DNA of 64,000 nt from NCBI GenBank assembly GCA_035550075.1, contig DASZQG010000049.1, positions 7,490-71,489 on the forward strand, read 5' to 3'. Both the position numbers and the translations under genes were made by a program. Below are positions 6,205 to 62,906 of the stretch, piece by piece (the first letter of the stretch is position 1; each line of letters starts with the position of its first letter). The notes under the pieces were generated by a model. The model was not told the DNA's origin. It worked only from the letters and a program-made list of their open reading frames with translations, and made no database searches. The stretch is from Hyphomicrobiaceae bacterium. GTDB taxonomy: Bacteria; Pseudomonadota; Alphaproteobacteria; Rhizobiales; Hyphomicrobiaceae.

Positions 6205-6267
6205 GCTGTCCTCCTTGAGGTCACAAACATCAAGTTTGCAGGAGAGCACGCGGGCGCTTCCTCGCCT

Positions 6268-7028: not shown

Positions 7029-7072
7029 GTCATCTTCAGCCGGGCTCGATCAGAGCCCGTCTGACCGATGCT

Positions 7073-7100
7073 GGGCGGCCATGAGGGCCGCCCTTTTTTT
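7073..7100 (+). terminator. rho-independent terminator
   Basis: Stem GGGCGGCC, loop atga, stem GGGCCGCCC, followed by TTTTTTT, downstream of the His/Arg-rich ORF. Confidence 0.7.
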
Positions 7101-7139
7101 GCGCGATGATTGGTGATCGGCCTGATGCCGCGGCAATGA

Positions 7140-7619: not shown

Positions 7620-7638
7620 CAGTGCTTGCGTGTAAATA

Positions 7639-8232
7639 TCAGTGCTTGGGCGGCAGCCCGGGCGGGACGCCGTCCGGCCGCAGCTCGGCCGCCATGCACC
7701 CCTTCTCGCCCATGCCCCAGCGAACCTGAACGTATTGCTCCGGCCGAAGCTCTGTGAAGCCGAACCGGCGCAGCGTCTCCATGTGGCAGAAGATGTCCGG
7801 GGTGCCTTCGCCACGTGTCAGGAATCCGAACCCACGCACCCGGTTGAACCACTTGCACTTGGCGCGTTCCCAGTCGCTTTCGGCTTTTACCACGACGTGT
7901 GTGCGCTGCGGCAGCTGCGATGGATGAATGGCTGTGCTGTCATCCATGCTGAGGACCCGAAAGGCCTGCAGCCCCCGCGGGCGCTTCAGCACCTCGCAGT
8001 GGACCCGCGCACCCTCGTAAGCGGTCTGGAAGCCCCCGGCTCTCAGGCAGGTGACGTGCAAGAGCACGTCCGGCAGGCCGTTATCTGGCACAATGAAGCC
8101 ATAACCTTTTGAAACATCGAACCATTTAATGGCACCGGCGATTTCGAACACCTCCAGTCCCTGTTCGCCCGCCGTCGCTCGCTGTTCGCCTTCAGGAAGA
8201 CCATCAGGTGGAAGTCTTTCCTCGTCCCCCAT
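7639..8232 (-). CDS. cold-shock protein with two tandem cold-shock domains
   Basis: Two CSD cores are present: GAIKWFDVSKGYGFIVPDNG...DVLLHV and AKCKWFNRVRGFGFLTRGEG..DIFCHM. Confidence 0.9.
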   Translation of the reverse strand: MGDEERLPPDGLPEGEQRATAGEQGLEVFEIAGAIKWFDVSKGYGFIVPDNGLPDVLLHVTCLRAGGFQTAYEGARVHCEVLKRPRGLQAFRVLSMDDSTAIHPSQLPQRTHVVVKAESDWERAKCKWFNRVRGFGFLTRGEGTPDIFCHMETLRRFGFTELRPEQYVQVRWGMGEKGCMAAELRPDGVPPGLPPKH

Positions 8233-8799
8233 TGGAGTAATCCCCGCTACTGTTGAACCTACTAAGCTGTACGCACCGCAGGCCCGAAGTTTGCCCTCAT
8301 CGGGTACCTTGCGTTGGATCAGCGGCGCGGACGTTAACCACGTGGGACGGGACAGGCCAGAGATTTTTTTGTACTCGCGGCCGCGAAATCCAAGATTGTC
8401 TGGAAATTGCCTGAGCGCCCCCGTGTAACGCCCTGGAAAGACGGGAGGCTCTGCCGGCTTCTGTGAGGGGCGTCATCTCTGGGGACTATTATTTAGAATG
8501 CCAGGTGACATCAATTACAGATGGGAACTGTATTCGCAGAAGTATAGCCAAACGCATTTCTGATTCGGTTTCACAATAGGTGACAGCAGTGTATCGCCGC
8601 AGGAGCGACGGCGCGATGCTCGTTGCGTTTTTCCACTGCTATCGACGGCTGCGGACCGCCGCTGGGAAACATCCGCAGGTTGTGCTCAATACGGTCAAGA
8701 CGCTAATGCGATTCTCTTGCGCGTCGGCATGTTGCGGCGCAAGGTTCGCACGGATTTTTCCGGGCCAATATCCGCAATGCGGCGTGAGGAGGTTGAGCA

Positions 8800-9246
8800 G
8801 TGTCACTGCGCTATTTGCATACGATGGTGCGCATCAGCAACATCGAAAAGAGCTTGGACTTTTACTGCGACAAACTTGGGATGCAGGAAGTCCATCGCCG
8901 GGAAGATCAGGCCGGGCGCTACACCCTCATCTTCCTGGCGGCACCCGAGGACAAGCAGCAGGCTACCAGCACGCGCGCGCCCCTGCTCGAGCTGACCTTC
9001 AACTGGGATCCGGAAGTCTATGGGGAAGGCCGCAATTTCGGCCACCTCGCGTTCGAGGTCGATGACATCTATGCCACCTGCGACCGGCTGATGAAGGGCG
9101 GCGTCACCATCAACCGCCCCCCGCGCGACGGTCGCATGGCGTTCATCCGCTCGCCCGACAACGTCTCCATCGAGCTTCTGCAAAAGGGGGCCGCACAGGC
9201 GAAGAAGGAGCCGTGGGCGTCGATGCCCAACACCGGCAAATGGTGA
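8800..9246 (+). CDS. gloA: lactoylglutathione lyase (glyoxalase I)
   Basis: GTG start with a GAGGAGG RBS. The sequence MSLRYLHTMVRISNIEKSLDFYCDKLGM...FGHLAFEVDDIYATCDRLMKGGVTINRPPRDGRMAFIRSPDNVSIELLQ is a typical VOC/GloA sequence. Confidence 0.9.
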   Translation: MSLRYLHTMVRISNIEKSLDFYCDKLGMQEVHRREDQAGRYTLIFLAAPEDKQQATSTRAPLLELTFNWDPEVYGEGRNFGHLAFEVDDIYATCDRLMKGGVTINRPPRDGRMAFIRSPDNVSIELLQKGAAQAKKEPWASMPNTGKW

Positions 9247-31700: not shown

Positions 31701-32747
31701 TCAGCCCATCTGAGCGGCGGGCGTGGAGCGGGAGATCTTTTGCTCCTCCTCCGTCATGTCGGCCGGGATGCTGGCGAACAGGGGCGTCGAGAGATAACGC
31801 TCGCCGGTGTCCGGCAGCATGGCCAGGATGGTGGAGCCCTTGGGCGCCTCGGCCGCTACCTTCAGCGCGCCGGCAAAAGTGCCACCGGCGCTGATGCCGA
31901 CGAAGATGCCCTCTTTAGTAGCCAGCTCGTTGCTCATGCGCAGCGCCTCCGGCCCCGGGACCGGCACGATCTTGTGGATCAGCTTCATGGCGACGGCGTC
32001 GCCGGTGATCTTCGGGATGAAGTCCGGCGTCCAGCCCTGCATCGGATGCGGTTTGAACGCGGGATGCGCGGCGGCGGGCGAGCCGTCCGGGTTGCGTGCC
32101 TGCTCGGTGCCGCTGCCCAGAAGCTGGGCATCTTCCGGCTCGCACACGATCACCTTGGTGTTGGGGCTCTCCTTGGCGAGCACGCGCGCCACGCCCTTCA
32201 GCGTGCCACCGGTGCCGTAGCCTGTCACCCAGTAGTCGAGCTTGGTGTCGGCGAAGTCGTCGATGATCTCGCGGGCGGTGGTGCGCGAATGGTAGTCGGG
32301 GTTCGCCTCGTTCTCGAACTGGCGGGTGAGGAACCAGCCGTGCGTCTTGGCGAGCTCGACGGCCTTCGTCACCATCGCCATGCCGCGGCCTGCGGCGGGC
32401 GTGATGACGACCTTGGCACCGAGGAAGCGCATCAGCCGGCGGCGCTCGACGCTGAAGGTCTCGGCCATTGTCACCACCAATGGGTAGCCTTTGGCCGCGC
32501 ACACCATGGCAAGGCCGATGCCGGTGTTGCCGCTGGTGGCCTCGATCACGGTCTGGCCGGGTTTCAGCTCGCCGGATTTCTCCGCCGCCTCGATGACGCC
32601 GAGGGCAAGCCGGTCCTTCACGGAACCGAGCGGGTTGAACGCCTCGATCTTGACGAACAGGTTGACGCCCGCGGGCGCCAGCCGGTTGATCTTGACGACC
32701 GGGGTGCGTCCGACGGTCTCCAGAATGCTGGCATATCTGCGTCCCAT
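31701..32747 (-). CDS. PLP-dependent cysteine synthase family protein
   Basis: NPLGSVKDRLA (PLP lysine), TSGNTGIGLA and GTGGT motifs in a 348-aa protein. Confidence 0.88.
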   Translation of the reverse strand: MGRRYASILETVGRTPVVKINRLAPAGVNLFVKIEAFNPLGSVKDRLALGVIEAAEKSGELKPGQTVIEATSGNTGIGLAMVCAAKGYPLVVTMAETFSVERRRLMRFLGAKVVITPAAGRGMAMVTKAVELAKTHGWFLTRQFENEANPDYHSRTTAREIIDDFADTKLDYWVTGYGTGGTLKGVARVLAKESPNTKVIVCEPEDAQLLGSGTEQARNPDGSPAAAHPAFKPHPMQGWTPDFIPKITGDAVAMKLIHKIVPVPGPEALRMSNELATKEGIFVGISAGGTFAGALKVAAEAPKGSTILAMLPDTGERYLSTPLFASIPADMTEEEQKISRSTPAAQMG

Positions 32748-35806: not shown

Positions 35807-35998
35807 ACGCCCCCTGCAGCGTCGGTCGGGAAACCGGCACCCGGAGGGCTGCGGAGCAGAAAAAGGTGGACGCAACGCGGGCCGCCGACTTGTTCGCGCG
35901 CAGGACCTGACGCTGGCGCGCCGGCTTTTTGCCAGTGGCACGTTCCCGATTGGGCAACCCCGATCAGGGAGTGCCACCGATCCAGGGAGAGCAAAGAC

Positions 35999-36412
35999 AT
36001 GGAAGACTACACGCTCAGTATCGTCGGGGTGCTCGCACTCTGCCTGCTGTCGATCCTTTTGGCGGTCTATTCCGGATCGTCCAAGGGCCGTGCCCAGGCG
36101 CTCTCGGGCCCGGTATTTCCGGCCAACGATGACAACCTGCTCTATCGGATCGACCGGGCGCACATGAACTCGGTGGAGGCGTTAGCACCTTTTGTGGTGC
36201 CCGCCGTGCTTGCGATGATCGTGGGTGTGGGACCGGCAACGCTGGCGGTGCTGGTATGGCTCCATCTCGCGATACGGCTGGCTCACCTGGCCATCTATCT
36301 GCGCGGTGGCAATGCAGCCAAGGGTGGCAGCGTCAGGACCATCCTCTTTGTCTCGGGGGCGCTGGTCACCGTGATCCTTATCGTGCTGACCGGCTGGACG
36401 GCGCTCTCCTGA
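35999..36412 (+). CDS. MAPEG-family membrane protein (glutathione-transferase-like), copy 1
   Basis: 137 aa with 3-4 TM helices. RAHMNSVEALAPFVVPAVLA...HLAIRLAHLAIYL is the MAPEG pattern. Confidence 0.78.
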   Translation: MEDYTLSIVGVLALCLLSILLAVYSGSSKGRAQALSGPVFPANDDNLLYRIDRAHMNSVEALAPFVVPAVLAMIVGVGPATLAVLVWLHLAIRLAHLAIYLRGGNAAKGGSVRTILFVSGALVTVILIVLTGWTALS

Positions 36413-37352
36413 GGAGGTCAGCTCGAGCAGGCGTTGTGGACACATCATCTACGAGCCACTCATAGAATGCTGCTACCTCCCGCCGTCGGAGCGACTGGGG
36501 CGCCGCGACCACATAATAAGCCCAGCGGATCGGCCACCGCCGTTCCGGGAACAGCTCGCAAAGGCGGCGGGTTGCGATCTCGTTGGCGACGAGTGCCCGG
36601 CGCACGAGTGCAACGCCTTGGCCGGCGACTGCCGCCTGCACAACCGCGGACGTTGCATTGATCTTGAGCATCGGGCTATCGCCGCGCGATCCCGCTCCAA
36701 CGTGTAGCAACCAATCCTGCCAGCTTGGGAAACCGCCACCTCGATGTGGCGTTGCATCTTCGATCAATGTCTGACCGGAAAGCCACTGCGCCATATCCAT
36801 ACCCTGCGGCCGCAATATCAGGGGGCTCGCCACCGCAATCACGTCCTCGTCCATGAGCTTTGTTGCGCGAACGCCCTTCCATTCACCAAGCCCGCAGCGC
36901 ACGCCGATGTCGGCTTCGCCTTTTGTCAGGTCGAGCAATCGGTCGGACACATCCAGGCGCACATCGATACCGCGATGGCGGCGGTTGAAACGCTCAAGGC
37001 GAAAGATGAGCCAATTTGCGACGAGCACCTGAGAGGCGGTCACGAGAACCGCAGCCCTCCCCTTGGGACCCCTCAATCGCTTTAGCCCCTCCTCCAGCGC
37101 GTCCAAGCCGAGCGTGATGTCTTCGAGCGCAGTGCGCACTTCCTCGGTTACAGCCAGCCTTTCCTTGCCTGAGCGTGAGCGGCGGAAAACAGGACGACCG
37201 ACCCAGTCCTCGAGCGAGCGTACTAACTGTCCAACTGCGGTAGCCGTCACCCCTAGCTCAGCAGCAGCGCCGGTAAACGATCCGTGCCGGGCGGCAGCCT
37301 CAAAGGCCTGAAGCGAGCGCAGACGCGATAGCGATCTCACGTCACCCCCCAA
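36378..37352 (-). CDS. LysR-family transcriptional regulator (GcvA-like)
   Basis: HTH LRSLQAFEAAARHGSFTGAAAELGVTATAVGQLVRSLEDWVGRPVFRR. The last 35 bp overlap the convergent MAPEG gene. Confidence 0.9.
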   Translation of the reverse strand: MGGDVRSLSRLRSLQAFEAAARHGSFTGAAAELGVTATAVGQLVRSLEDWVGRPVFRRSRSGKERLAVTEEVRTALEDITLGLDALEEGLKRLRGPKGRAAVLVTASQVLVANWLIFRLERFNRRHRGIDVRLDVSDRLLDLTKGEADIGVRCGLGEWKGVRATKLMDEDVIAVASPLILRPQGMDMAQWLSGQTLIEDATPHRGGGFPSWQDWLLHVGAGSRGDSPMLKINATSAVVQAAVAGQGVALVRRALVANEIATRRLCELFPERRWPIRWAYYVVAAPQSLRRREVAAFYEWLVDDVSTTPARADLLRRAPSSRSAR

Positions 37353-37454
37353 AGAGCAAACTCAACGCAGTTTTTCTTCGTCGTCGCCTCTTTTCTTACA
37401 CCTCGCGCAAACGAAGTGAAAGGTCGATTGTGACGCTGCTCAAGGGAGTCAAGG

Positions 37455-38201
37455 ATGTATCTAAGTGGCCGTACAGCGCTCGTTACGGGAGGGTCGAGCG
37501 GGATAGGATTCGCCACCGCCAAGCTGTTCGGGGAGCATGGCGCTCGGGTTGCAATCACCGGCCTCGACGAAGAAAAACTTGAGAAGGCGCGGGCGCAAAT
37601 AGGACCTCAAGCGCTCGCGCTCCGCGCCGATGTGCGCGCGCTCGTTGATCTCGCCGTGATGCGTGATGCGCTGGACCGTACGTTCGGTCACCTCGATGTC
37701 CTCTTCGCAAACGCCGGCGTCGCCTTTAGCACGCCGATCGAGAACACAGATGAAGCGCGCTACGACGCGCTCATGGACGTGAACATCAAAGGCGTATTCT
37801 TCACGGTGCAGGCGGCATTGCCACTGATGAGGCCGGGCGCGGTCATCATCCTCAACACGTCATGGCTGAACCAGGTCGGCACCTCAGGACTGTCGCTTCT
37901 CTCGGCCTCCAAGGCTGCTGTGCGCTCCTTCGCGCGCACGTTATCCGCGGAACTCCTGCCGCGCGGAATACGGGTCAACGCAGTAAGCCCGGGAGCAATC
38001 GACACTCCGATCCGCATGCGCGGCGCAGCCACTGCGGAGGAGGTGCGCGCGGCGAACGAAAAACTGGCCGAGCGAATTCCGCTCAAGCGCCTGGGCGAGC
38101 CCGAAGACATTGCCCAGGCGGCACTTTACCTAGCGAGCGATCTGTCTCGGTACGTTGTCGGCGCCGAGATCGTGGTCGACGGCGGATTTTCGGAGCTATG
38201 A
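37455..38201 (+). CDS. SDR-family oxidoreductase
   Basis: TGGSSGIGFATA cofactor motif and a catalytic S...SASKAA region. It is divergent from the LysR gene. Confidence 0.9.
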   Translation: MYLSGRTALVTGGSSGIGFATAKLFGEHGARVAITGLDEEKLEKARAQIGPQALALRADVRALVDLAVMRDALDRTFGHLDVLFANAGVAFSTPIENTDEARYDALMDVNIKGVFFTVQAALPLMRPGAVIILNTSWLNQVGTSGLSLLSASKAAVRSFARTLSAELLPRGIRVNAVSPGAIDTPIRMRGAATAEEVRAANEKLAERIPLKRLGEPEDIAQAALYLASDLSRYVVGAEIVVDGGFSEL

Positions 38202-38851
38202 CCATGAACCTCCATGCAGACCTATCGATTCCCGCGCTTGTCCATGCCGGCCGCCAGTCTTGGGTGCAGAGCCCGGCTGCCGGCGTCGAGCGGCGCTTGC
38301 TGTACCGCGTGGGCGGCGAGGAAGCGATCGCAACCTCGATCGTGCGCTACGCGGCCGGCTCTTCGTTCCCGCCGCACGTCCACCCCGGTGGCGAGGAGTT
38401 TCTCGTGCTCGACGGAGTCTTCGAGGACGAGCACGGGCGCTATCCCGCTAACAGCTATGTTCGCAACCCGCCGGGATCAGCGCACGCGCCACGCTCAAGC
38501 ACAGGCTGCATTATCTTCGTACGGCTTCGGCAGTTCCGCATGGACGACAAGCGTCAAGTCGTCGACTTGCCGCCACCGCACCGCCGCGATCGTTCACTTT
38601 TCATGCCGCGACAGCTGTTCAACGGCCTAGATGAGCATGTCGCAATCATCCGCTGGGAGCCGCACGCCACGATCGAGTTCGGAGCACACGGTGGGCTGGA
38701 GCTGCTGATACTTGAAGGGGAGCTTTCGGCCTGCGGCAGCGACCTCGAATATTGGAGCTGGCTGCGCTTGCCAGCCGGTACGCCGCTGATGGGTGTCGTT
38801 GGAGGCACCGGTTGTGTGGCGTGGGTCAGAACCGCCTCGCCTTGGCCCTGA
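38198..38851 (+). CDS. cupin domain protein (ChrR-like double cupin)
   Basis: The start MTMNLHADLS overlaps the SDR stop (ATGA). Cupin motif: SFPPHVHPGGEEFLVLDGVFEDEHG. The longer track ORF 37862..38851 is upstream read-through. Confidence 0.8.
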   Translation: MTMNLHADLSIPALVHAGRQSWVQSPAAGVERRLLYRVGGEEAIATSIVRYAAGSSFPPHVHPGGEEFLVLDGVFEDEHGRYPANSYVRNPPGSAHAPRSSTGCIIFVRLRQFRMDDKRQVVDLPPPHRRDRSLFMPRQLFNGLDEHVAIIRWEPHATIEFGAHGGLELLILEGELSACGSDLEYWSWLRLPAGTPLMGVVGGTGCVAWVRTASPWP

Positions 38852-38915
38852 ATCGCCGCACCGAAACTGCGTTGCACAAAGCCTCAGCGTACCATCCGAT
38901 CACGATGAAGAACCC

Positions 38916-39308
38916 ATGAACGACTTGCAATGGCTCGCCGCCACAATTCTCCTGACGCTGCTCAGCGCCTTTCCTTACATTATTAAGCGGATCCTTACGA
39001 TCGGGCTGCCGCGCACGCTGGGCAACCCGGGTGCCGGTGACAATGCCGAGATGGCTCCGTGGGCGCAGCGCGCCAAGCTTGCGCACGCCAATGCGGTCGA
39101 GAACCTGATTCTTTTCGCGCCTGCTTTGATCGCCGCGCACCTTCACAATCCAAAAGCGGCGACCCTTGCGACTGCTGCACAAGTCTACTTCTTCGCAAGG
39201 CTCACACACTACGTCGTCTACGGAGCCGGCGTGCCCATCGTTCGCACGCTGGCCTACTTGGTGGGTATCGGCGCGACAGTGGTGGTTCTGGCAACCCTGA
39301 TGGCGTGA
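38916..39308 (+). CDS. MAPEG-family membrane protein, copy 2
   Basis: MNDLQWLAATILLTLLSAFPY...RAKLAHANAVENLILFAPALI...FFARLTHYVVY is the MAPEG pattern. Confidence 0.78.
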   Translation: MNDLQWLAATILLTLLSAFPYIIKRILTIGLPRTLGNPGAGDNAEMAPWAQRAKLAHANAVENLILFAPALIAAHLHNPKAATLATAAQVYFFARLTHYVVYGAGVPIVRTLAYLVGIGATVVVLATLMA

Positions 39309-39414
39309 GTAGCGCAGCTCCTGTCTCGATGACCACTGGAGCACACAGCCTCTTGAGGGGGGCGGTGAGGTGACGTGTCAGCACATCAGGTTCTCTGCGA
39401 AAGGACAGCCGACA

Positions 39415-40674
39415 ATGGGTAAAGAGTTGCGCTTCGCTCCCTCGCATCGTTGGCGAGTCCTCAGCATCGGCGTTGCGGCAAACGGCGCAGTCGCTGCCGC
39501 CTTTGTGGGCATACCGGCGGCGGCGGTATTCGTTCGTTGCGGCTATCAGATCGACAATGCCACTTTCGGCTGGGTCATTGGCGCGATGGGCCTCGGGTTG
39601 GCAGTCAGCGAATTGCCCTGGGGCTTTGCTACGGACTGGCTGGGCGACCGCAAGGTGCTGCTGACTGGCCTTAGCCTGACAGGTGTCGTGCTCACGTTGA
39701 TGGTCTCGTTTGTCTCACCGACGCCGACGCATGTGCCAACAGCGACGCTTCTCGCTTTAGGCCTTCTGTTCGTGGGCGGCATCGGCGGAAGCGTCAATGG
39801 TTCGAGTGGTCGCGCAGTGATGGCCTGGTTTCAAGAGGGCGAACGCGGTCTTGCCATGAGCGTGCGCCAGATGTCGGTGCCAGCCGGCGGCGCACTCGGG
39901 GCGCTCATTCTTCCGACGACTGCAGAACATCTCGGATTCGGTGCGGTGTACGGTATTCTTGCTGTTTTCTGTTTTGTCACAGCATCTTTCACCTGGGCAT
40001 GGCTGCACGAGCCGCCTATACAGATGGCGGCCCCGTCCACTCAAGCTGCAATGCAGCCATCCGCCCCCAGCCCGCTGGCCAATGGCCAAATCTGGCGCAC
40101 GGTGTGCGGTCTGGGGGCGCTCTGTGTTCCGCAAGTCATCGTCGTAACTTTTGCCGCAATCTTTCTGAATGACGTTGCACATCTGAGCACCGCCGCGATC
40201 AGCGCCAGCATCGTCACCTTTCAGATCGGCGCCGCCTTCACGCGCGTCTGGAGCGGCTACTTCACGGACCGGCACAAGAACCGAAGACCCTTCCTCAAGG
40301 CATGTGCCCTGCTCACAATGGCGATATTTGGATCGGTCGGCCTCCTGGTCGTGCTGGCCTCGATGATGCCCGGTTATGGGAGCATAGCGATGACCGCTGC
40401 GGTATCGCTTGTCATTGTTGGCGGCACCGCCGCTTCGACATGGCATGGGATCGCCTACACCGAATTGGCAGCCATCGCCGGCTTGGAGCATGTCGGGACG
40501 GCGCTCGGCCTCGGGAACACTTTTGCCTTTAGCACCTACTTCCTGACACCACTTGCAACACCTTTCATCCTTGATGCTTTGGCCTGGCAGGGGGTGTGGT
40601 TCGCGGCAGCCGCCGCGGCTTATCTGGCGTTCGTCTTGTTTCCGAATCCTGCGTCCTCAGCCAAAGCGCTCTGA
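39415..40674 (+). CDS. MFS transporter
   Basis: About 12 TM helices and an MFS loop motif, DWLGDRKVLL. Start chosen at MGKELRF. Confidence 0.85.
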   Translation: MGKELRFAPSHRWRVLSIGVAANGAVAAAFVGIPAAAVFVRCGYQIDNATFGWVIGAMGLGLAVSELPWGFATDWLGDRKVLLTGLSLTGVVLTLMVSFVSPTPTHVPTATLLALGLLFVGGIGGSVNGSSGRAVMAWFQEGERGLAMSVRQMSVPAGGALGALILPTTAEHLGFGAVYGILAVFCFVTASFTWAWLHEPPIQMAAPSTQAAMQPSAPSPLANGQIWRTVCGLGALCVPQVIVVTFAAIFLNDVAHLSTAAISASIVTFQIGAAFTRVWSGYFTDRHKNRRPFLKACALLTMAIFGSVGLLVVLASMMPGYGSIAMTAAVSLVIVGGTAASTWHGIAYTELAAIAGLEHVGTALGLGNTFAFSTYFLTPLATPFILDALAWQGVWFAAAAAAYLAFVLFPNPASSAKAL

Positions 40675-40777
40675 GACGTGGGCCATGTTGTGGTAGCGCC
40701 AGCCATTGGCAGCAATTGACGAACCAAGGTTCGCCAAGACACTAACTAAGTTGTCCTGCAGTATCCAACTTTCGCTT

Positions 40778-40795
40778 CCCTCACTCCCACTCGAT
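40778..40795. repeat. displaced copy of the guaA 3' terminus (att-like direct repeat, distal copy)
   Basis: ccctcactcccactcgat is identical to 44732..44749. The match is 20 of 21 if extended by 3 nt. It lies in an A/T-rich non-coding gap. Confidence 0.8.
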
Positions 40796-40958
40796 TGTTT
40801 CGCGACAGCATACGTCTCTGATTTTCTGCAGTGTTTGAAATGCCTCCAAAAGAAACCACCGACATTTCCTCCGATGGCGTCCTGAAGATGTCGGGACGCA
40901 GGGCTTTGTCATCTGTAACTGGCGAGCCGTGGGCCTCCGGCGCGGGCCGAACATAGGG

Positions 40959-41717
40959 CTAGACAGGGCCTCCCACGCTTTCTGAAGGCGATTTGCGCTC
41001 CGGCAGCAAAAACAGGAGCCACGGCACGGTTGCGCAAAGGGCAATCCAGCCAAGCGCCAAGAGGGGAAACCTATCGCCGGCGTCGAGCACCTTAATCCCC
41101 GCTTGCACGACACCATGCACGAGGGCTGGCGCCAAGACCGATCCGCCACTGCGTTCAAACAACCAGGCAAGAGGAAACGAGATCGACACCGCAAGCAGGA
41201 GCGAAGCCAGCGCGACGGCGAAATCCAACTGCAGCAGCAGCAATGCATGCACCACAACGAAGGGTGCCGCAGCTAGCAACGCGGCATGCCAGAATGGACG
41301 CGTAGCGCGAAGACGGCGGAACACAAACCCGCGAAACACCACCTCCTCGGCGATTCCACCCTGCGCAAACATTCCCAGGGCGAGCCATGCTGCCCCCGGC
41401 AGCAGTTCAAGCCGCGCGCCGGTCGTCGCCGCGAATATCGGAAAGTAAGGGAGCAAAGCTGCCGACAGCGCCAGCGCCCACAGCAATGCCCGCCAGTTCG
41501 TCCAGCGCAATCCTAACGCCGGAACCGCTTCAGCTACACTCCGTCGCGACAAGATGCATTCGCAGGCGACTGCCGCGACGAGCACGAGCGCACAGACGAT
41601 CAGGCCGAATTCACCGCGCATGCTGCCAAACCCTGCCGCCGAGCGGTCGAGCAACAGCCACAGGACGAAAAAGCCGAGCAGCGTCGGCGCCAGATCACCT
41701 CTTGCCAACGCCCTCAT
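40959..41717 (-). CDS. CPBP-family intramembrane glutamic endopeptidase (CAAX protease/Abi-like)
   Basis: Motif 1 is GGIAEEVVFRGFVFRRL, motif 2 is FVVVHALL, and motif 3 is ...APALVHGVVQ. The protein is polytopic. Confidence 0.8.
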   Translation of the reverse strand: MRALARGDLAPTLLGFFVLWLLLDRSAAGFGSMRGEFGLIVCALVLVAAVACECILSRRSVAEAVPALGLRWTNWRALLWALALSAALLPYFPIFAATTGARLELLPGAAWLALGMFAQGGIAEEVVFRGFVFRRLRATRPFWHAALLAAAPFVVVHALLLLQLDFAVALASLLLAVSISFPLAWLFERSGGSVLAPALVHGVVQAGIKVLDAGDRFPLLALGWIALCATVPWLLFLLPERKSPSESVGGPV

Positions 41718-41787
41718 AGGTCGATCACCGCATCCACCGCACGGCGCGGCGACATAGCCAGATCTGGCCCATAGCCGAAGCTTGGGG

Positions 41788-42996
41788 TTACTTGCGGTCC
41801 AGGCTCTCATAGACAGCTGCCAAGATGCGGCCTTGGCGTAGGGACTCGTAGGGGCCCTTGAGCCAGCGGTTCATCACGAAGCTCATCGACATGCGTTCGT
41901 CGAAGTCGACAAACCCGAGCGAGCCGCCCTGTCCACCCCACCACGCGATGCGATGATCGCGCGGATAGGCCCAGAGCGGCGAGTCGAGCGCGAACGCCGC
42001 AGCGCCGAACTTGATCGGCGCGCCAAGCACCAGATCGACGCCATCGGACATCTGTTCGAGGGCACGGAAGCGCCCTTTGTCGGAAAGCAGCCGCACGCCG
42101 CCTACACCGCCTGACGCCAGAACCTGATGGACCGTCGCCACAGAACGGGCGTTGCCGTGCCCGTTGGCGCCGCCGACTTCCGCGCGCCGCCACGCCTTTG
42201 TGTGCGACGTGTATGGCGTAAGTCGCGGATTCAAGCCGACCCGCTCAGCGATAGGGTTGTCGCTCGGCAGCCAATCGCGCCCACCCTGCACGAAGCTAGC
42301 GATGCGGTGATCGTGCTCTGGGCCGATGCCAATATGATAATCGGCGCCGAGCGGCCGCGCCACATGCGTGGCGAAGTACTGGCCCAACGTCACACCAGTG
42401 ATGCGTTTGATCACGCCGCTCGCCAGGTGGCCGATACAGATGCCGTGATAGCCGGACGCGGTTCCCGGCTCCCACCACGGCGCCTGGCGCGCCAGCAGAT
42501 CGCATGCCTTGTCGTGATCATACACGTCTTCCCACGTCACATCCTCGGTCCACCCCGCAAGGCCTGACGTGTGGCTGAGGATGTGTTTGACGAGCACGCC
42601 TGACTTGCCGTTGCGTGCGAATTCCGGCCAATATTTCGCGACCGGCGCGTCGAAATCGAGTTCGCCGGAATCGGCCAGAACGAGCGCGGCCATCCCAGTC
42701 ATGGTTTTGGTGATCGAGTGCGTCGTGATGATGGTGTCGCGCTCCCATGGCCGCTCGTATTTGGCGTCGAAGTAGCCGCCCCAGAGATCTACCACTGGCT
42801 CGCCGTCGATGAACACGGCGACGGATGCGCCGATGTCGTCGCCGCTATCGAGATTATATTGCAACGCCTGGCGCACAGGCTCGAACCGGTCCGGGCATAT
42901 CCCCTTGATTTTGGCGTTCTCGATCACCGGCCACGTAGACGGCGCGGTGGAAATCGTCGGATTCCATTCAGTTTTCTGCGCCCTCAAGCCGAACAT
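41788..42996 (-). CDS. beta-lactamase-fold serine hydrolase (esterase/class C-like)
   Basis: The SxxK motif HSITKTMTG sits in a 402-aa protein with a typical EstB/AmpC-like layout. Confidence 0.88.
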   Translation of the reverse strand: MFGLRAQKTEWNPTISTAPSTWPVIENAKIKGICPDRFEPVRQALQYNLDSGDDIGASVAVFIDGEPVVDLWGGYFDAKYERPWERDTIITTHSITKTMTGMAALVLADSGELDFDAPVAKYWPEFARNGKSGVLVKHILSHTSGLAGWTEDVTWEDVYDHDKACDLLARQAPWWEPGTASGYHGICIGHLASGVIKRITGVTLGQYFATHVARPLGADYHIGIGPEHDHRIASFVQGGRDWLPSDNPIAERVGLNPRLTPYTSHTKAWRRAEVGGANGHGNARSVATVHQVLASGGVGGVRLLSDKGRFRALEQMSDGVDLVLGAPIKFGAAAFALDSPLWAYPRDHRIAWWGGQGGSLGFVDFDERMSMSFVMNRWLKGPYESLRQGRILAAVYESLDRK

Positions 42997-43026
42997 GGCT
43001 GCCTCCTTTGTTAAAGCGCCATTAAC

Positions 43027-43084
43027 GTCTCTTTGGTGGCGCCATAAAGAGCCGCCATTGTCTCTTTGTCAAGCTCAAAGAGAC
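43027..43084. promoter_or_regulatory. candidate TetR operators in divergent promoter region
   Basis: GTCTCTTTG occurs twice as a direct repeat (43027, 43060). There are two inverted repeats: CTCTTT-N11-AAAGAG (43029-43051) and GTCTCTTTG-N7-CAAAGAGAC (43060-43084). Confidence 0.55.
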
Positions 43085-43137
43085 GCTCTTGTATCTTTCT
43101 TTGGAAGCGCCTATTTCAGGTTCGAAGGCAGGAGATC

Positions 43138-43797
43138 ATGGCAGCGAAACGCAAGACGAAAGAGATGCAGCGCGGACCCGGTAGACTTTCAGCGGCGGAG
43201 ACGGCACAGCTTGAAGATCGCCTGCTCGACGCCGCGGAGCGCGTGTTCGTAGCCCAGGGATATGCTCGCGCCACCATGGACGCGATCGCCAAGGAAGCGG
43301 GCGCCTCGCGCAAGACCTTCTACGCCCGCTACGCCAATAAGGCCGACGTTCTGACCGCGGTGGTCAATCGTCTTCTTGATTCGGCGATCACACCGCACAA
43401 AAAGGGCGTTCGCTCGCCCGCTGTTGGACGCGACCCTGCCGCGCTCCTCTTACAGATCGCTCGTGAACTGGCGGGCCTTTCAGAAACCCCTCACGTCGCT
43501 GGCATAAATCGGCTGGTGTTCGCCGAGGCGCTTCAGGCGCCTGATCTTGCGCGCCTGTTTCTGGATCTGCACGCCCGCGCCGCCGACGATGTACGCGCCA
43601 ATCTGGAAGAGCTCCGCGACGAAGGCAGTCTGCCGCGCCTGCCCAATAGCAAGCTGGCGGCGGTCATTTTCATCGAGATGGCGGCGTCTATGCCACGTCT
43701 ACGCGCTCTGCTGGGCGCGCCGCTCAGCCGCAAGGAAACCAATGATCTAACAGCCGCCGCCGTGCAGATTTTCCTGCATGGCTGCGGAAGGGCTTAG
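43138..43797 (+). CDS. TetR-family transcriptional regulator
   Basis: LLDAAERVFVAQGYARATMDAIAKEAGASRKTFYARYANKADVL. A GGAGA RBS precedes the ATG at 43138. Confidence 0.9.
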   Translation: MAAKRKTKEMQRGPGRLSAAETAQLEDRLLDAAERVFVAQGYARATMDAIAKEAGASRKTFYARYANKADVLTAVVNRLLDSAITPHKKGVRSPAVGRDPAALLLQIARELAGLSETPHVAGINRLVFAEALQAPDLARLFLDLHARAADDVRANLEELRDEGSLPRLPNSKLAAVIFIEMAASMPRLRALLGAPLSRKETNDLTAAAVQIFLHGCGRA

Positions 43798-43821
43798 GAC
43801 TATTTCGATTTGGAGAACGCG

Positions 43822-44448
43822 ATGTATGCTCCTTCACCCTATCGTGTTGACGATGTGAATCGCATTTGTGCGCTCATGGATGCATTCCCATTCGCAACCC
43901 TTGTCAGGAATGACACGAGCGGGCCGGTCGCCGCTTATCTCCCGCTCGCGCGCAGCGAAGGCGCCTCAGGCGGCGCCGTCCTCTTCGGTCATCTCGCGAA
44001 GGCGAACCCATTTTGGCTCGGCGCCGACGGCGCGGAAGTCGTTGCGCTCTTTTCGGGGCCTGACGGCTACATCTCTCCGTCCAACTATCCTTCGAAGCAG
44101 ACGCACGGAAAGGTCGTTCCGACCTGGAATTATGTGCGCGTCGAAGTTCGCGGCAGACTTTCGATCGAGACCTCGCCTGGTCGGCTGCGTCACTACATGG
44201 ATATGCCGACGACGATGATGGAACGTCATCGCGAAGCGCCATGGTCGGCGGACGATGCGCCACCCGACTTCATCAACAATCTCGCCACCGCCATCGTCGG
44301 CATCCGGATCGACGTCACTTCGTTGGAAGGATCGTGGAAGCTCGACCAAAGAAAAGCGCCGATTGATCGGCAGGGCGCGATCGCGGGGATGCGATCGGAG
44401 GGAAACCAAGATCTGGCCAACCTCATGGCCGAGATTACACTCGCCTGA
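43822..44448 (+). CDS. PaiB-family FMN-binding negative transcriptional regulator
   Basis: MYAPSPYRVDD...FPFATLV...VPTWNYVRVEVRGRL...SWKLDQRK is the PaiB pattern. A GGAG RBS precedes the ATG at 43822. Confidence 0.82.
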   Translation: MYAPSPYRVDDVNRICALMDAFPFATLVRNDTSGPVAAYLPLARSEGASGGAVLFGHLAKANPFWLGADGAEVVALFSGPDGYISPSNYPSKQTHGKVVPTWNYVRVEVRGRLSIETSPGRLRHYMDMPTTMMERHREAPWSADDAPPDFINNLATAIVGIRIDVTSLEGSWKLDQRKAPIDRQGAIAGMRSEGNQDLANLMAEITLA

Positions 44449-44731
44449 GAGTTAGCGCGACGTCGATGGTCCAGTGATCGGCGCCGAGATTGCGGGCGCT
44501 GGTTATACCCTGTCAGTTTGCGACAAGCTCTATGGCTATACCCTTTATTGCACATCCTGTGTGCTTCACCGCCTCCGCTCAACCCGAATGAAGGCGAAGG
44601 ATCAACAAAAACACCGGCGATAGATGGCGACAGCTGGGTCTTGATCAGCAAACCGAGCGTTGGCGATAGTTAGCGAGGGTTATAGGCCACTCTTGGCGAT
44701 CGTCCGCGAATGTTCGCGATAGACGGCGGCA

Positions 44732-44749
44732 CCCTCACTCCCACTCGAT
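44732..44749. repeat. guaA 3' terminus (att-like direct repeat, gene-proximal copy)
   Basis: ccctcactcccactcgat spans the guaA stop codon (minus sense ATC GAG TGG GAG TGA GGG). Confidence 0.8.
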
Positions 44750-46282
44750 GGTGCCTGGCGGCTTTGAGGTGACGTCGTAGACGACGCGGTTGATGCCCTT
44801 GACCTCGTTGATGATGCGGGTGGCGGTGCGGCCCAGCACCTCGTGCGGGAACTGGAAGTAGTCGGCGGTCATGCCGTCGGTGGAGGTGACGGCCCGCAGC
44901 GCGCACACATGGTCGTAGGTGCGCGCATCGCCCATCACGCCGACGGTGCGCACGGGCAGCAGCACCGCGAACGCCTGCCAGATCTGGTCGTAGAGGCCGG
45001 CCTTGCGAATTTCGTCGAGGTAGATCGCATCGGCCTTGCGCAGGATGGCGAGCTTCTCCGCCGTGATGTCGCCGGGGATGCGGATGGCGAGCCCCGGTCC
45101 AGGGAAGGGATGGCGGCCGATGAAGTGCTCGGGCAGGCCCAGCTCGCGGCCGAGCGCGCGCACCTCGTCCTTGAACAGTTCGCGCAGCGGTTCGACCAGC
45201 TTCAGGTTCATGCGCTCGGGCAGGCCGCCGACGTTGTGGTGCGACTTGATGGTGACGGACGGGCCGCCGGCGAACGAGACGCTTTCGATCACGTCGGGAT
45301 AGAGCGTGCCCTGCGCCAGGAACTCGGCCCCGCCGGCCTTCTTGGCCTCCGCCTCGAACACGTCGATGAACAGGGCGCCGATGGTCTTGCGCTTGGCCTC
45401 CGGATCAGAGACGCCGGCCAAGGCCTTGAGGAAGCGCTCGCTCGCATCGACATGCACCAGCGGGATATTGTAGTGACCCCGGAACAGCGACACGACCTCT
45501 TGCGCCTCGTCCTGCCGCAGCAGGCCGTGGTCGACGAAGATGCAGGTGAGCTGGTCTCCGATTGCCTCGTGGATCAGCACGGCGGCGACCGCGCTGTCGA
45601 CGCCGCCGGAGAGCCCGCAGATCACGCGGCCCTTGCCGACCTGCGCGCGGATCTTGGCGATCTCGGCCGAGCGGAAGTGGGCCATGCTCCAGTCGCCCGG
45701 CAAGCCGGCGATCTTGCGCACGAAGTTGCGGATCAGCAGCGAGCCGCGCGGGGTGTGCGCGACCTCGGGATGGAATTGCACGGCATAGAGTTTGCGCGCC
45801 TCATCGGCGATGGCGGCGAACGGCGCACCGCGCGACACGCCGACCACCTTGAACCCGGGCGGTAGCCGCGTGACGCGGTCGCCGTGGCTCATCCACACGG
45901 TGTCGAGGCCGCCTTTCTTCCAGAAACCCTCGAACAGCGGGGAATCGCTGGTGATCTCGAGGTCGGCGCGGCCGAATTCACGATGGTGGCCGCCTTCCAC
46001 CCCGCCGCCGAGCTGCGCCACCATGGTCTGCTCGCCGTAGCAGATGCCGAGCACGGGCAGGCCCGAGGTGAACACCCAGTCCGGCGCGCGCGGGGTGCCG
46101 AACTCGGTGACGCTGGCGGGGCCACCCGAGAGAATCACCGCGCGCGGCTGCAGCCGCTGCAGGGCGTCATCCGCCCGGTTGAAGGGCACGATTTCGGAGT
46201 AGACGCCCTGCTCGCGCACGCGCCGGGCGATCAACTGGGTCACCTGGCTGCCGAAATCGATGATCAGGACGGTGTCGGTCAT
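44735..46282 (-). CDS. guaA: GMP synthase (glutamine-hydrolysing)
   Basis: The GATase domain is [27 protein letters not shown]...GICYG and the ATP-PPase motif is [11 protein letters not shown]. The C-terminus is [14 protein letters not shown]. Start chosen at MTDTVL. Confidence 0.95.
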
Positions 46283-47533: not shown

Positions 47534-47660
47534 CTCCTGGGTCCCGGCTCTCCGCTGCGCTTCGGCCGGGATGACACGAAGAGAACCCCGGCCACCGGCG
47601 TTACATGCCTGCTGCTGTCATCCCGGAACTTCGCGAAGCGAAATATCCGGGATCCAGGGC
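47534..47660. repeat. REP/MITE-like palindromic element, family A, two inverted copies
   Basis: One copy is at 47616-47660 (tgtcatcccggaacttcgcgaagcgaaatatccgggatccagggc). An inverted, diverged copy is at 47534-47577. Each has the nested palindromes TCCCGGA...TCCGGGA. The pair lies between convergent genes. Confidence 0.8.
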
Positions 47661-53590: not shown

Positions 53591-56500
53591 TCACGAAGGC
53601 TTGATGGAATTTTCGCTGCGCGGTTGCGTCTCAGCCATCGCCTCGCTCAGCAGCCGGGCGACGTGCTGCGCCGCGCGGCCCGCCCCGTCGGCGATCTGGT
53701 GGCGGCAGGAGAAGCCGTCGGCGGCGATGGCGGTGGCGGCGGGCGCCTTGCGGACGGCGGGCAGCAGCGCCAGTTCGCCCATGGCCAGGGAGACATCGTA
53801 GGTGTCGGCGCCGTAGCCGAAGGCGCCGGCCATGCCGCAGCAGCTTGAATCTACGGTCGCGACCTCGAATCCCTCGACCAGCCCCAGCGTCCGGGTGACC
53901 GCGTCCATCGCCGCGAACGCCTTCTGGTGGCAGTGGCCGTGCAGCAGGATCTTGCGCGTCTGGCGGGCGATCGGGCCTTCGATGCGGCCGGCGGCGGCTT
54001 CGCCGGCGAGAAACTCCTCGAACAGGACGGCGTGTTTGGCCAGCCGGTCGGTCTCGGGGCCCGGCAGCATGGCCAGGAATTCATCGCGCAGCGTGAGCAG
54101 GCACGACGGCTCCAGGCCGACCACAGGCACGCCGCGGGCAAGGAACGGCGCCGCGGCATCCAGCACCCGGCGGGCTTCGGTGCGCGCCTCCTCGACCAGA
54201 CCCGCCGACAGGAAGGTGCGGCCGCAGCAGAGCGGACGCGGCGGCCGGGCGTAGCCATTGCCGGTGGCCGCGCGCAGCACGCTGACGCGGTAGCCGAGCC
54301 GGCCGAGGACATCCACCGCGGCGCGCAGGTTCTCCGGCTCGAAATGGGCGTTGAAGGTGTCGGCGAACAGCGCGACCTCGCGCAGCGAGCCGGGGGCACC
54401 CGAGTTCTCCCCCCTCGAGGGTGCAGAGGCGTCGATCGCGCCGCGATCGTTTCCGTCCGGAGTTCTCCGATCCCTGGCCCCTCCCGGCCAGGGGGAGGGA
54501 AATCCGGCGACGGCCGCCGCCTCGAACACATCCCGCCGCCAGCGCGGCAGCCGGCGGCGCGCGGACAGGCCGGTCATCCCTTGCGTGAGGGCGGCGACGC
54601 CGGGGATGGCGTTGCGCGCGTTCATCAGCGGCGCCACCTTCGACGCGAACGGCGCATAGCGCGGCAGGTAGGCGACCAGCCGGTCGCGCAGCGACAGGCC
54701 GCGCCGCGCGTTGGCCGCGGCCAGCACCTCGATTTTCATTTTCGCCATGTCGACGCCGGTCGGGCACTCGCGCCGGCACCCCTTGCAGGAGACGCACAGC
54801 TTCATCGTCTCGAGCATGTCGTCGGAGGCGAAGGCGTCGGGTCCGAGCTGCCCCGAGATGGCGAGGCGCAACGCGTTCGCGCGCCCGCGGGTGACGTCGC
54901 GCTCGTTGCCCGTCATGCGAAACGAGGGGCACATGACGCCGGCGGCGTGCTTGCGGCACTCGCCGTTGTTGTTGCACATCTCCACCGCGCCCTGGAACCC
55001 GCCGCCCTGTCCCGGGTAGGCCGACCAGTCGAGCGCCATCGTCATTTCGCGCACGCGGTAGTCCGGTTTGAAGCGAAACAGCGTGCGGTCGTCCATGCGC
55101 GAGGGGCGCACGATTTTTCCCGGATTCATGAGGCCGGTTGGATCGAACCGGTCCTTCACCTCCTCGAAAATCTCGACGGTCCTGCGCCCATACATCTTTT
55201 CGTGGAATTCGGAGCGGACCAGCCCGTCGCCGTGCTCGCCGGAGTGCGAGCCCTTGTATTGGCGCACCATGGCGAACGCCTCCTCGGCGATGGCGCGCAT
55301 GGTGCGGGCATCCTTTTCCAGCTTCAGGTTGAGGACGGGGCGCACGTGCAGGCAACCGACGCTGGCGTGCGCGTACCAGGTGCCGCGCGTGCCGTGCCTG
55401 GCGAACACCTCCGTCAGCCGCTCGGTGTAGTCGGCGAGGTGTTCCAGCGGCACCGCGCAGTCCTCGATGAAGGAGACCGGTTTGCCCTCGCTTTTCATCG
55501 ACATCATGATGTTGAGGCCGGAGGCGCGCACGCTCCACACGGCGGCCTGGCCCGCGGCGTCCGGCACTTTCACCACGCTGCCCGGAGAGCCGAGATCGCC
55601 CATCAGCTCTTCGAGGCGGCCGAGGCGGGTCAGATTTTCGGCCTGGTCGTCCTGCGCGAATTCGACCAGCAGCAGCGCGTCCGGTTGCCCGCGCACGTAG
55701 GCGTCCATCACCGGGCGGAACATGGCGATGTCGCGGGCGAGCTCGATCAGCGTGCGATCCACCACCTCCACCGCCACCGGCCCGAGCTTGACGATGTGCT
55801 GCGCGGCCTCCATCGCCTTGCGGAAGGTGGCGAAGTGGCAGATGCCGAGCGCCTTGTTCTTCGGCAGGGGCGACAGCTTGAGCGCGATCTGCCGCGAGAC
55901 GGCGAGCGTGCCCTCCGAGCCGCACAGCAGCGTGGCGAGGTTCACCGGCGCGCTGCCCGGAACCAGCGCGTCGATCAGATAGCCGCCGACGCGGCGCGAC
56001 ACCTCGGGGAAGGCGTGCGCGATGTGGTCCGCCTCGCGCCGGCCGAGCGCGAGCAGGTCGCGGAACAGGGCAAGCGCGGTATCCTCACCACTGGCGCCGC
56101 GCGCATCCCCTCGCCCCGCTTGCGGGGAGAGGGCCAGGGTGAGGGGCGATGCGGGGGAGGGTGAGCCTTGCGCGGGGAGAGGCAGCCCCAGGTTATGCCC
56201 CACCTCGCCGACCCGCGCCTCGCTGCCGTCGGGCAGGATGGCGTCGATGGCGATCACGTTGTCGCGCATGATCCCGTAGCGGATCGAGCGCGTGCCGCAC
56301 GAGTTGTTGCCGGTCATGCCGCCGATGGTGGCGCGGCTGGACGTCGAGACGTCGACCGGAAACCACAGGCCCGTCGGCTTGAGCTTTCGGTTCAGCTCGT
56401 CCAGCACGATGCCCGGTTCGACGAGGCAGGTGCGCGCCTCGGCGTCCGTGCTCACGATCCGGTTCAGGTACTTCGAGAAATCGAGCACCAGCGCGCGCCC

Positions 56501-62839: not shown

Positions 62840-62861
62840 GGTCCTTTCCAACCGCCCCATC

Positions 62862-62906
62862 TGTCATCCCGGAAAGGCGCGAAGCGCCATATCCGGGAGC
62901 CAGGGG
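62862..62906. repeat. REP-like element family A, third copy
   Basis: tgtcatcccggaaaggcgcgaagcgccatatccgggagccagggg is nearly identical in its ends to 47616-47660. It also lies between convergent genes. Confidence 0.8.

Follow-up and report, generated by a model that had tools for sequence, protein, structure and literature searches.

A short direct repeat at the 3' end of guaA most probably marks the attL and attR sites of a small islet that integrated at this gene and persists as an att-flanked, integrase-less remnant of the CIME type (probability about 0.8). Both copies of the repeat in the window (the whole 64-kb stretch of DNA analysed) contain the published GIsul2 recombination core, GAGTGGGA, and the copy at guaA has been used as an integration site in a sister strain of the same species. 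The islet looks like a known kind of structure, namely, the stripped-down leftover of a mobile island.

Two copies of the guaA terminus and the genes between them

The 18-mer CCCTCACTCCCACTCGAT is found on the + strand at 40778–40795 and again at 44732–44749, exact and in direct orientation, with a spacing of 3,954 bp. Extending the comparison by 3 nt (40778–40798 versus 44732–44752) leaves 20 of 21 positions matched. The duplication over the guaA stop codon described in the initial annotation (18 nt, 3.95 kb apart) was thus reproduced in full, and no third copy was found in the 64-kb window with up to 3 mismatches allowed (n = 2 in total). The proximal copy covers the last five guaA codons, the stop codon and GGG, and the reading frame is regenerated. 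The GuaA C-terminus, TIEWE followed by the stop, is the same in relatives, and the composition of the DNA breaks precisely at the guaA stop. GuaA itself, for which an alternative ORF start exists at 46339, is identical at 515/515 residues to a protein (P0249, HWB44630.1) from a Hyphomicrobiaceae MAG. The distal copy sits in a 284-bp gap, with convergent MFS and CPBP genes on either side, and is identical at 18/18 positions to attLR, the internal att site of GIsul2 on pAB3. It would be the attR of the islet. Two other matches were attributed to chance: a core 8-mer at 1653 lies within fixP, and a 17-mer of the islet arm that recurs in another locus (L016) lies inside a deaminase gene.

Table 1. 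Features of the guaA islet and its surroundings (window coordinates).
Feature	Position	Strand or sequence	Evidence and remarks
Segment A, low-GC, lineage-specific	35807..40777	.	MAPEG, LysR, SDR, ChrR-cupin, MAPEG, MFS (Pfam)
Distal att copy	40778..40798	guaA sense ACAATCGAGTGGGAGTGAGGG	18/18 and 20/21 versus proximal copy
Terminator-like hairpin	40855..40878	-	Consensus match only; ends hydrolase-CPBP unit, in distal arm
CPBP/Rce1-like intramembrane protease (cargo)	40959..41810	-	Pfam Rce1-like, E=1e-12
Serine hydrolase, beta-lactamase fold (cargo)	41788..42996	-	Pfam Beta-lactamase, E=5e-58
Operator-like direct and inverted repeats, CAAAGAGAC...	43012..43098	.	Repeat search; divergent TetR/hydrolase promoter region
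TetR-family regulator (cargo)	43066..43797	+	Pfam TetR_N and TetR_C_7
PaiB-like FMN-binding protein (cargo)	43810..44448	+	Pfam FMN_bind_2, E=5e-48
P-arm-like non-coding stretch, 283 bp, guaA-adjacent	44449..44731	-	CTATCG(C) motifs and two GGYTATACCCT
Proximal att copy	44732..44752	guaA sense ACCATCGAGTGGGAGTGAGGG	Exact repeat; core GAGTGGGA at 44739-44746
guaA, GMP synthase, 515 aa	44735..46282	-	Pfam GATase, NAD_synthase, GMP_synt_C

Pfam searches bore out the gene content proposed earlier for the interval (CPBP protease, serine hydrolase, TetR regulator and PaiB-like protein) as well as its lack of integrase, excisionase and transfer genes. No domain of these three kinds was found in the islet ORFs, and tblastn with the integrase (Int) and AlpA of the sister strain against the 64-kb window gave nothing better than E = 0.2. 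The true start of the TetR gene is probably at ~43138 (the gene is called at 219 aa in the sister-strain locus L085). A stem is predicted at 43059–43085, in the TetR/hydrolase promoter region, and the operator-like repeats suggest that TetR may act through them. Homologues of the hydrolase are full-length (402–403 aa), 75–89% identical, and adjoin TetR in unrelated contexts. No RNA families were detected at 35–47 kb with Rfam, and a plasmid collection contained no islet-like sequence beyond weak matches to the hydrolase. Target-site duplications of transposons are shorter than 18 bp. A transposon with target-site duplication was accordingly rejected as the origin of the repeat: the duplication is too long, the islet ends have no terminal inverted repeats and Pfam identified no transposase domain.

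An occupied site in a sister strain and the guaA loci of relatives

The sister strain was reached through P0180, a truncated hydrolase that is 99% identical, and through members of the GuaA cluster; its two loci (L085 and L168) display 99.2–99.4% nucleotide identity to the window. The match between the window and L168 runs to the guaA stop, and that with L085 starts at the 21-nt site. Between these breakpoints lies a ~44.7-kb (~45-kb) island, X, placed exactly at the guaA-proximal repeat and bounded by ACCATCGAGTGGGA at guaA and by a site equal to window positions 44732–44752. The first genes of island X encode a P4-type tyrosine integrase (Arm-DNA-bind_3, Phage_int_M and Phage_integrase domains) and a convergent AlpA. 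The integrase is 57.7% identical over 95% of its length to the Int of GIsul2, the pAB3 context identifying the match as GIsul2. The proximal repeat is therefore a genuine att site that has been used recently, and with respect to island X the window represents the empty state, the occupied/empty polymorphism applying to the proximal copy only. For the islet this copy acts as attL, and for the 45-kb island as an attB that is unoccupied in the window. Together with the core, the island at this position supports the earlier proposal that the repeats represent att sites for a tyrosine integrase family specific for the guaA 3' end. In the sister strain, island X stands beside the islet, forming a tandem island–islet array (accretion). 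There, a 3.65-kb deletion takes out the distal att and the PaiB gene carries a nonsense codon, which speaks for a fossil and against an active element.

The initial annotation had named guaA followed directly by the sequence left of the islet as the empty site to look for in relatives, and here the outcome was negative: no islet-free junction of guaA with the MFS flank was found among the loci compared. In the nearest sister species (94% in GuaA; L081, L169 and L171), guaA is followed by entirely other genes, and no empty site for the islet is present in these three loci. Scans for GuaA in genome and metagenome collections yielded no relative above 88% and were used for statistics only. Viral contigs contained neither the junction of an islet circle, ...GCTGTCGCGAAAC[A/C]ATCGAGTGGGAGTGAGGGTGCCGCCGTCTATCG..., nor that of an islet-free chromosome, ...CAGGCACCATCGAGTGGGAGTGAGGGAAGCGAAAGTTGG....

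Integrases that are 70–81% identical lie ~300 nt after guaA in ~20 of 167 alphaproteobacterial guaA loci (~12%). Some of these ~20 are cut short or frameshifted, which indicates that integrase decay does happen at this site. Furthermore, in 12/145 loci (~8%) the guaA 3' end recurs in direct orientation within 10 kb downstream, and the islets between the copies contain no integrase in the nine loci in which ORFs were scanned.

Arm DNA, foreign composition and competing explanations

The islet has ~280 bp of arm DNA on its guaA-proximal side and ~160 bp on its distal side. A motif scan recovered the four GCGATMG (+ strand, 44617, 44663, 44696 and 44716) and two GGYTATACCCT (44501 and 44534) motifs previously noticed near the proximal copy. 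The suggestion that they are arm-type binding sites was partly borne out. The reverse complement of GCGATAG, CTATCG, forms a conserved block within the integrase-proximal arms of 16 related elements, and its enrichment is confined to such arms and the islet arm, the motif being otherwise rare downstream of guaA. Moreover, the 13-mer TCGCCATCTATCG is common to the guaA-proximal arm of the islet and the integrase-proximal arm of island X, and AAAATCAG occupies the same register in the distal arms of the islet and of island X. However, the most conserved feature of the 16 integrase-bearing arms, the TGACGGTAT repeats present 4–5 times per arm, is absent from the islet arm even with one mismatch allowed, and CTATCG is the only one of the integrase-arm blocks compared that the islet arm has. 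Recognition of the islet by the integrase of the sister strain is therefore uncertain, and its present-day mobility is unproven.

We propose that a P4-type tyrosine integrase of the GIsul2/IntG kind would have catalysed entry of the islet at the guaA 3' end by site-specific recombination, with a crossover within ACCATCGAGTGGGA regenerating the last guaA codons. The islet most likely originated by decay of a larger island, and its arm motifs suggest that this could have been an ICE or IME. It may formerly have had an integrase of its own, although no trace of one was detected in the islet. The putatively TetR-controlled serine hydrolase/CPBP unit and the PaiB-like flavoprotein would be the retained cargo. 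The guaA-proximal att has stayed a live docking site, used in the sister strain by island X with its int and alpA, and the islet itself might still be excisable in trans.

The sequence to the left of 40778 is itself not native to the chromosome. The foreign low-GC tract runs 5 kb past the distal copy, to ~35.8 kb, and the picture of an islet in native chromosome is incomplete. This lineage-specific segment A reaches from the distal att to the conserved neighbours DUF4336/EamA; its GC content is 0.618 versus 0.683 in the core and its GC3 is 0.66–0.78 versus 0.82–0.92. Islet and segment A could together constitute one composite island of ~8.9 kb (35.8–44.7 kb) produced by two successive guaA integrations, with the 40778 copy as an internal att and the outermost att eroded. 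We regard this as a serious possibility, at slightly less than even odds. Both parts are foreign to the same degree in GC and GC3, and the resulting three-att structure is exactly that of GIsul2. In addition, distant relatives have DUF4336 or EamA, both of which flank the window tract, 1–2.5 kb after guaA (guaA, a small islet and DUF4336 in L045; guaA and then EamA in L082). By contrast, a search of the far end of segment A (35.8–36.0 kb) revealed neither a third att remnant nor a flanking repeat, and both strains have segment A, so that nothing points to its movement. A composite island is nevertheless compatible with the islet being an att-flanked remnant and would extend that explanation, not replace it.

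The main explanation, decay of a larger island, also has to be weighed against the islet never having had an integrase and representing hitchhiking att-flanked cargo, moved in trans by resident guaA-specific integrases as is the CR2-sul2 unit. There is a precedent: the CR2-sul2 unit, which has no integrase, is both excised and inserted by the Int of GIsul2, acting at 19-bp att sites (PMC9376610). The islet has perfect cores at both ends and a full-length arm kept right up to the cargo, its arm motif set (CTATCGCC and GGGTATARCC) is distinct from that of island X, and integrase-less islets between guaA-end copies recur in the survey above. On the other hand, the same cargo genes are also found in places that have neither guaA nor att sites, no second copy of the islet was found in other genomes, the cut-short integrases adjacent to guaA elsewhere show simple decay to be common, and the sister-strain islet is degenerating despite the integrase in that strain. 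We consider cargo of this kind unlikely. A broader version is a shade less likely still: the guaA 3' end might be a docking platform across Alphaproteobacteria for small integrase-less att-flanked islets, each with its own arm motifs, that are captured and exchanged in trans by IntG/GIsul2-family integrases, whether resident or visiting, integron-like for multi-gene cassettes. The window islet would then be such a cassette and not a dead remnant.

Could the distal 18-mer instead have no history of recombination, being either a coincidental match or a motif conserved by convergence? In order-3 Markov simulations of the window composition, an exact 18-mer direct repeat arose in 34% of cases, and the window contains a second, unrelated exact 18-mer repeat (31811/54061), so that repeat length by itself is not significant. 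Furthermore, ATCGAGTGGGAGTGAGGG is strongly conserved at guaA ends throughout the order. The weight of the repeat lies in the fact that it is the guaA terminus that is repeated, in the same orientation, within an intergenic gap a few kb downstream. The guaA-terminal 18-mer specifically is expected only ~1e-6 times per 10 kb; it borders a block of foreign composition; second copies across relatives are always direct and downstream (nine seen versus ~0.1 expected); and the proximal copy has demonstrably been used as an att site. A match of this kind without recombination is very improbable. Equally improbable is that the islet represents one region of a Mesorhizobium-type tripartite ICE (ICE3), in which IntG-type integrases target guaA and for which the guaA-type att on one side only of segment A might speak, because such regions lie between att halves that belong to different integrases, with IntS/IntM partners, whereas the islet has two sites of the same type, and the window contains no tRNA gene and no conjugation or integrase genes.

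Relation to known guaA-targeting elements

At this locus, a GIsul2/IntG-family att site is clearly delimited in an uncultured lineage of Hyphomicrobiaceae, and its occupied and empty alleles both exist in nature, in two conspecific strains. The core through which sul2 spreads in clinical Gammaproteobacteria is also a heavily used integration hotspot in Alphaproteobacteria of soil and water. For annotation, a block of foreign composition after guaA should be read as island accretion even when it lacks an integrase. The current understanding of how such elements work is unchanged.

Among described systems, CIMEs and their tandem accretion were conceived for elements related to ICESt1/ICESt3 (PMC5704250). 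Like a CIME, the islet keeps attL and attR and is devoid of integration and transfer genes, and tandem accretion is seen in the sister strain. By contrast, CIMEs were defined in Firmicutes and at other target genes, and cis-mobilisation of the islet is putative.

The comparison extends further for GIsul2, a guaA-specific genomic island of Gamma- and Betaproteobacteria with a three-att structure, whose 19-bp att sites, located at the 3' end of guaA, share the core GAGTGGGA and whose Int also moves an integrase-less, att-flanked CR2-sul2 unit (PMC9376610). Both systems use the guaA 3' end and short att sites centred on GAGTGGGA (~19 bp in GIsul2; an identity block of 18 nt in the window), and both include an integrase-less unit between two att copies. 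The sister-strain island has, like GIsul2, a P4-type Int and AlpA, and the element-side sequence GAGTGGGAATGATTCCG is common to the attL of GIsul2 and that of the island. The host of the window, however, is an uncultured Hyphomicrobiaceae bacterium, the islet cargo is unrelated (no ISCR2, sul2, rep, trb or ars), and alpA is co-directional with int in GIsul2 but convergent in the sister-strain island. Compared with a complete GIsul2/IntG element, the islet is without adjacent Int/AlpA and without arm sites of the TGACGGTAT type.

IntG of the Mesorhizobium tripartite ICEs targets guaA (PMC8627217), in agreement with the initial annotation, and the IntG/RdfG module has a convergent arrangement of int and the excisionase gene (PMC5882170). 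The islet arrangement is unlike that of a tripartite-ICE region, but the target gene is the same and, in the sister strain, a tyrosine integrase gene is likewise paired with a convergent MerR/AlpA-like excisionase gene. Integrases adjacent to guaA in Mesorhizobium retamae and Aminobacter are 80% identical to that of the sister strain.

Repeats at the guaA terminus and the tract behind them

The end of guaA is duplicated in the window. The 18-mer CCCTCACTCCCACTCGAT occurs as two exact copies, the right-hand one covering the gene end and the left-hand one lying in a 284-bp gap between convergent MFS transporter and CPBP protease genes. Extended by three bases the pair is identical at 20/21 positions, and the claim of the initial annotation that the guaA end recurs 3.95 kb away was thus borne out. 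Read in the direction of guaA, its sequence is ATC GAG TGG GAG TGA GGG, which includes GAGTGGGA; the window has no further copy of the 18-mer, even when three mismatches are allowed. Some exact 18-mer direct repeat was present in 34% of simulated windows (order-3 Markov, window-based), and the window itself holds a second exact pair, CCGGCAGCATGGCCAGGA, which is unrelated, rich in G+C and regarded as coincidental. Since this second pair is present, such repeats are not rare in the window, and it is the position of the guaA pair, not its length, that makes it meaningful. A separate 45-nt intergenic repeat with internal dyad symmetry (CTGTCATCCCGGAA...ATATCCGGGA.CCAGGG, 87% identical copies) may be a REP-like dispersed element.

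Features at and around the guaA terminus (window positions)
Feature	Position	Strand	Basis	Remarks
guaA	44735-46282	minus	Pfam	protein terminus TIEWE*
18-mer, guaA-proximal copy	44732-44749			
18-mer, distal copy	40778-40795			
CPBP/Rce1-like protease	between copies		Pfam	
Beta-lactamase-fold serine hydrolase	between copies		Pfam	
TetR regulator	between copies		Pfam	
FMN_bind_2/PaiB-like protein	between copies		Pfam	
Islet	between copies			GC 0.611, GC3 0.67-0.77
Core genes				GC 0.683, GC3 0.82-0.92
Segment A (second low-GC tract)	~35.8 kb to distal copy			MFS, MAPEG, cupin, SDR, LysR, MAPEG
Second 18-mer pair	31811-31828, 54061-54078			
45-nt repeat	47615-47659, 62861-62905			

The four genes of the ~3.9-kb islet between the copies are those described in the initial annotation, and the small motifs that it reported near 44500-44720 are present. 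It was also right that the islet lacks an integrase; furthermore, nothing like the integrase (X Int) or AlpA-family protein of the sister-strain island X was found in the whole window. The islet is compositionally foreign, with the break falling exactly at the guaA stop. The TetR gene is divergent from the hydrolase–CPBP pair, operator-like palindromes lie between them, and a terminator-like hairpin is located just ahead of the distal copy; overall, the islet looks like a self-contained cargo module. The TetR–hydrolase pair is also found in other bacteria without guaA, in one case with a PaiB-like gene alongside.

The low-GC tract runs on to the left of 40778, to ~35.8 kb. This DNA, overlooked in the initial annotation, is not native chromosome, and the islet sits inside a larger accreted foreign tract. 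In more distant relatives, DUF4336 or EamA, the genes flanking the tract in the window, are found 1-2.5 kb from guaA, and therefore the ~8.9 kb after guaA was probably gained in at least two steps. Neither a third att copy nor a flanking repeat was found at the far end of segment A. Another low-GC stretch (0.616) occupies window positions 1-9000 and encodes core respiratory functions (cbb3 oxidase, fixNOP) together with an LTXXQ protein, DUF192 and a cold-shock protein; a search of it for mobile-element genes gave none, so low GC alone is no island marker in this genome.

Island X in a sister strain

The islet hydrolase has a 99% identical, truncated homologue (P0180) that led to a sister strain, represented by a 664-kb metagenomic contig (JGI 3300055099 Ga0556626_0000001) with 99.2-99.4% DNA identity to the window and a GuaA (P0247) differing by one residue. 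An independent Logan assembly has the same arrangement (L085, L086). Of two stretches of the contig that were read, L168 tracks the window from 56280 to the guaA stop codon and is divergent beyond, and L085 tracks it leftwards, the match starting exactly where the 21-nt repeat has its outer edge (44752); between the two matches sits ~44.7 kb absent from the window (record 522,265-567,003). This island, X, carries a 418-aa tyrosine integrase (Arm-DNA-bind_3, Phage_int_M, Phage_integrase) 293 nt past guaA, followed by a convergent AlpA-family gene. Its end at guaA is ACCATCGAGTGGGA-ATGATTCC, and its far end, ACCATCGAGTGGGA-GTGAGGGTGCC, is identical to the guaA terminus of the window. It follows that the proximal repeat is a true att site that has seen recent use in this species, and that the window is the unoccupied allele for island X. 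Thus, the att-site reading of the repeats is supported both by the core GAGTGGGA and by island X docked at the proximal copy, where its landing has produced a tandem X–islet array.

In the parts of island X that were seen (18 of ~45 kb; L168 11549-21548, L085 1-8243), the cargo comprises an MmeI-family restriction-modification enzyme, a DEAD helicase, T5orf172, an ImmA/IrrE-like regulator, SIR2_2, a HigB/HTH toxin-antitoxin pair and a 1228-aa AAA_30/UvrD_C helicase, and the island looks like a defence island. The islet is degenerating in this strain: a 3.65-kb deletion with 5-nt microhomology (window 38706-42353 vs L085 10639-10643) takes the hydrolase end, CPBP, the distal att, MFS, MAPEG and part of the cupin gene, so that what is left of the hydrolase gene is fused to the remainder of the cupin gene. 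PaiB also has a nonsense codon there.

guaA termini and element arms in Alphaproteobacteria

Among 167 alphaproteobacterial guaA loci examined, drawn from collections of genomes and metagenomes, about 20 encode an integrase that shares 70-81% identity with X Int and starts 290-380 nt past guaA. Their hosts include Bradyrhizobium, Mesorhizobium, Aminobacter, Devosia and Xanthobacter, and truncation or a frameshift affects several of the integrases. Downstream sequence was sufficient in 145 loci, and in 12 of these the guaA 3' end recurs within 10 kb, direct and downstream in every case, and no integrase was detected in the nine enclosed 1-6-kb islets with ORFs scanned. Six loci (L023, L045, L053, L057, L125, L157) have a long second copy, with 89-299 bp of 3' coding sequence rather than ~20 bp, and no integrase where ORFs were scanned, a pattern that suggests either an integrase family of another kind, using a longer segment of identity, or insertion by some other route. 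In Neomesorhizobium albiziae (L063 11554-17185), thiD-like, thiG and thiC have guaA on one side and a 36-nt second copy of its end on the other, apparently a housekeeping thiamine biosynthesis operon inside att-like repeats. In three loci of the nearest sister species (L081, L169, L171; GuaA ~94% identical), the 10 kb upstream of guaA is fully syntenic with the window, whereas none of the downstream genes (BrkB, hydrolase, PEMT, glycosylase, Ku, CinA, RNase HII, LigD-like) is present in it; the guaA terminus is thus a synteny breakpoint between species.

The guaA–integrase interval of ~300 nt has a conserved architecture in 16 loci (L168, L037, L080, L109, L017, L076, L126, L003, L059, L089, L075, L123, L128, L115, L020, L070) and displays ATAAC..CTGAA, TCGnnnnCTATCG and four to five TGACGGTAT repeats, one inverted, which are candidate arm-type sites for the X-Int-like family. 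The block CTATCG is conserved throughout the 16 aligned arms, and among 173 guaA-end sites at least two direct copies are confined to integrase-bearing arms and the islet arm. The 283-bp guaA-proximal arm of the islet has three exact and two degenerate CTATCG(C) motifs and shares the 13-mer TCGCCATCTATCG with the integrase-proximal arm of island X; the two distal arms share AAAATCAG at equal distance from the core. However, the islet arm contains no TGACGGTAT repeats, the most conserved feature of integrase-bearing arms, which would argue against recognition by X Int. It has its own pair of GGGTATARCC motifs instead, and we take it to come from a related yet distinct lineage of elements.

Origin of the islet and relation to GIsul2 and IntG elements

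The islet is an att-flanked, integrase-less unit, and the guaA attachment site where it lies is verified as one used by the GIsul2/IntG integrase family; we put the probability that it arose by site-specific integration at about 0.8. An element of this kind would have integrated at the guaA terminus and subsequently lost its integrase and other functions while both att sites were kept, a route whose existence is shown by truncated integrases in other guaA loci. The outcome would be a cis-mobilizable element (CIME), as such att-flanked, integrase-less remnants are termed (PMC5704250). Its guaA-proximal att has stayed competent as a landing site, as the integration of island X in the sister lineage shows. 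The search of relatives for an empty site of the islet itself found none, the closest other species having wholly different genes after guaA, nor was a circular junction found among viral contigs; that the islet can still be mobilised seems unlikely.

As the initial annotation had noted for IntG, guaA is a known target of Mesorhizobium ICEs and IMEs through this integrase; intG and the excisionase gene rdfG are convergent (PMC8627217, PMC5882170), the same arrangement as int and AlpA in island X. GIsul2 enters the guaA 3' end via 19-bp att sites whose shared centre, GAGTGGGA, is the proposed core recombination site, and its integrase excised and integrated CR2-sul2, an integrase-less unit between two such sites (PMC9376610). 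On plasmid pAB3 its gene order is int, alpA, repA, repC, trbJKL, ars, ISCR2, sul2. X Int is 57.7% identical to the GIsul2 integrase over 95% of its length, and the element-side GAGTGGGAATGATTCCG is common to island X and the GIsul2 left end. The internal attLR of GIsul2, ACAATCGAGTGGGAGTGA, is the same as the distal copy of the window over 18 nt.
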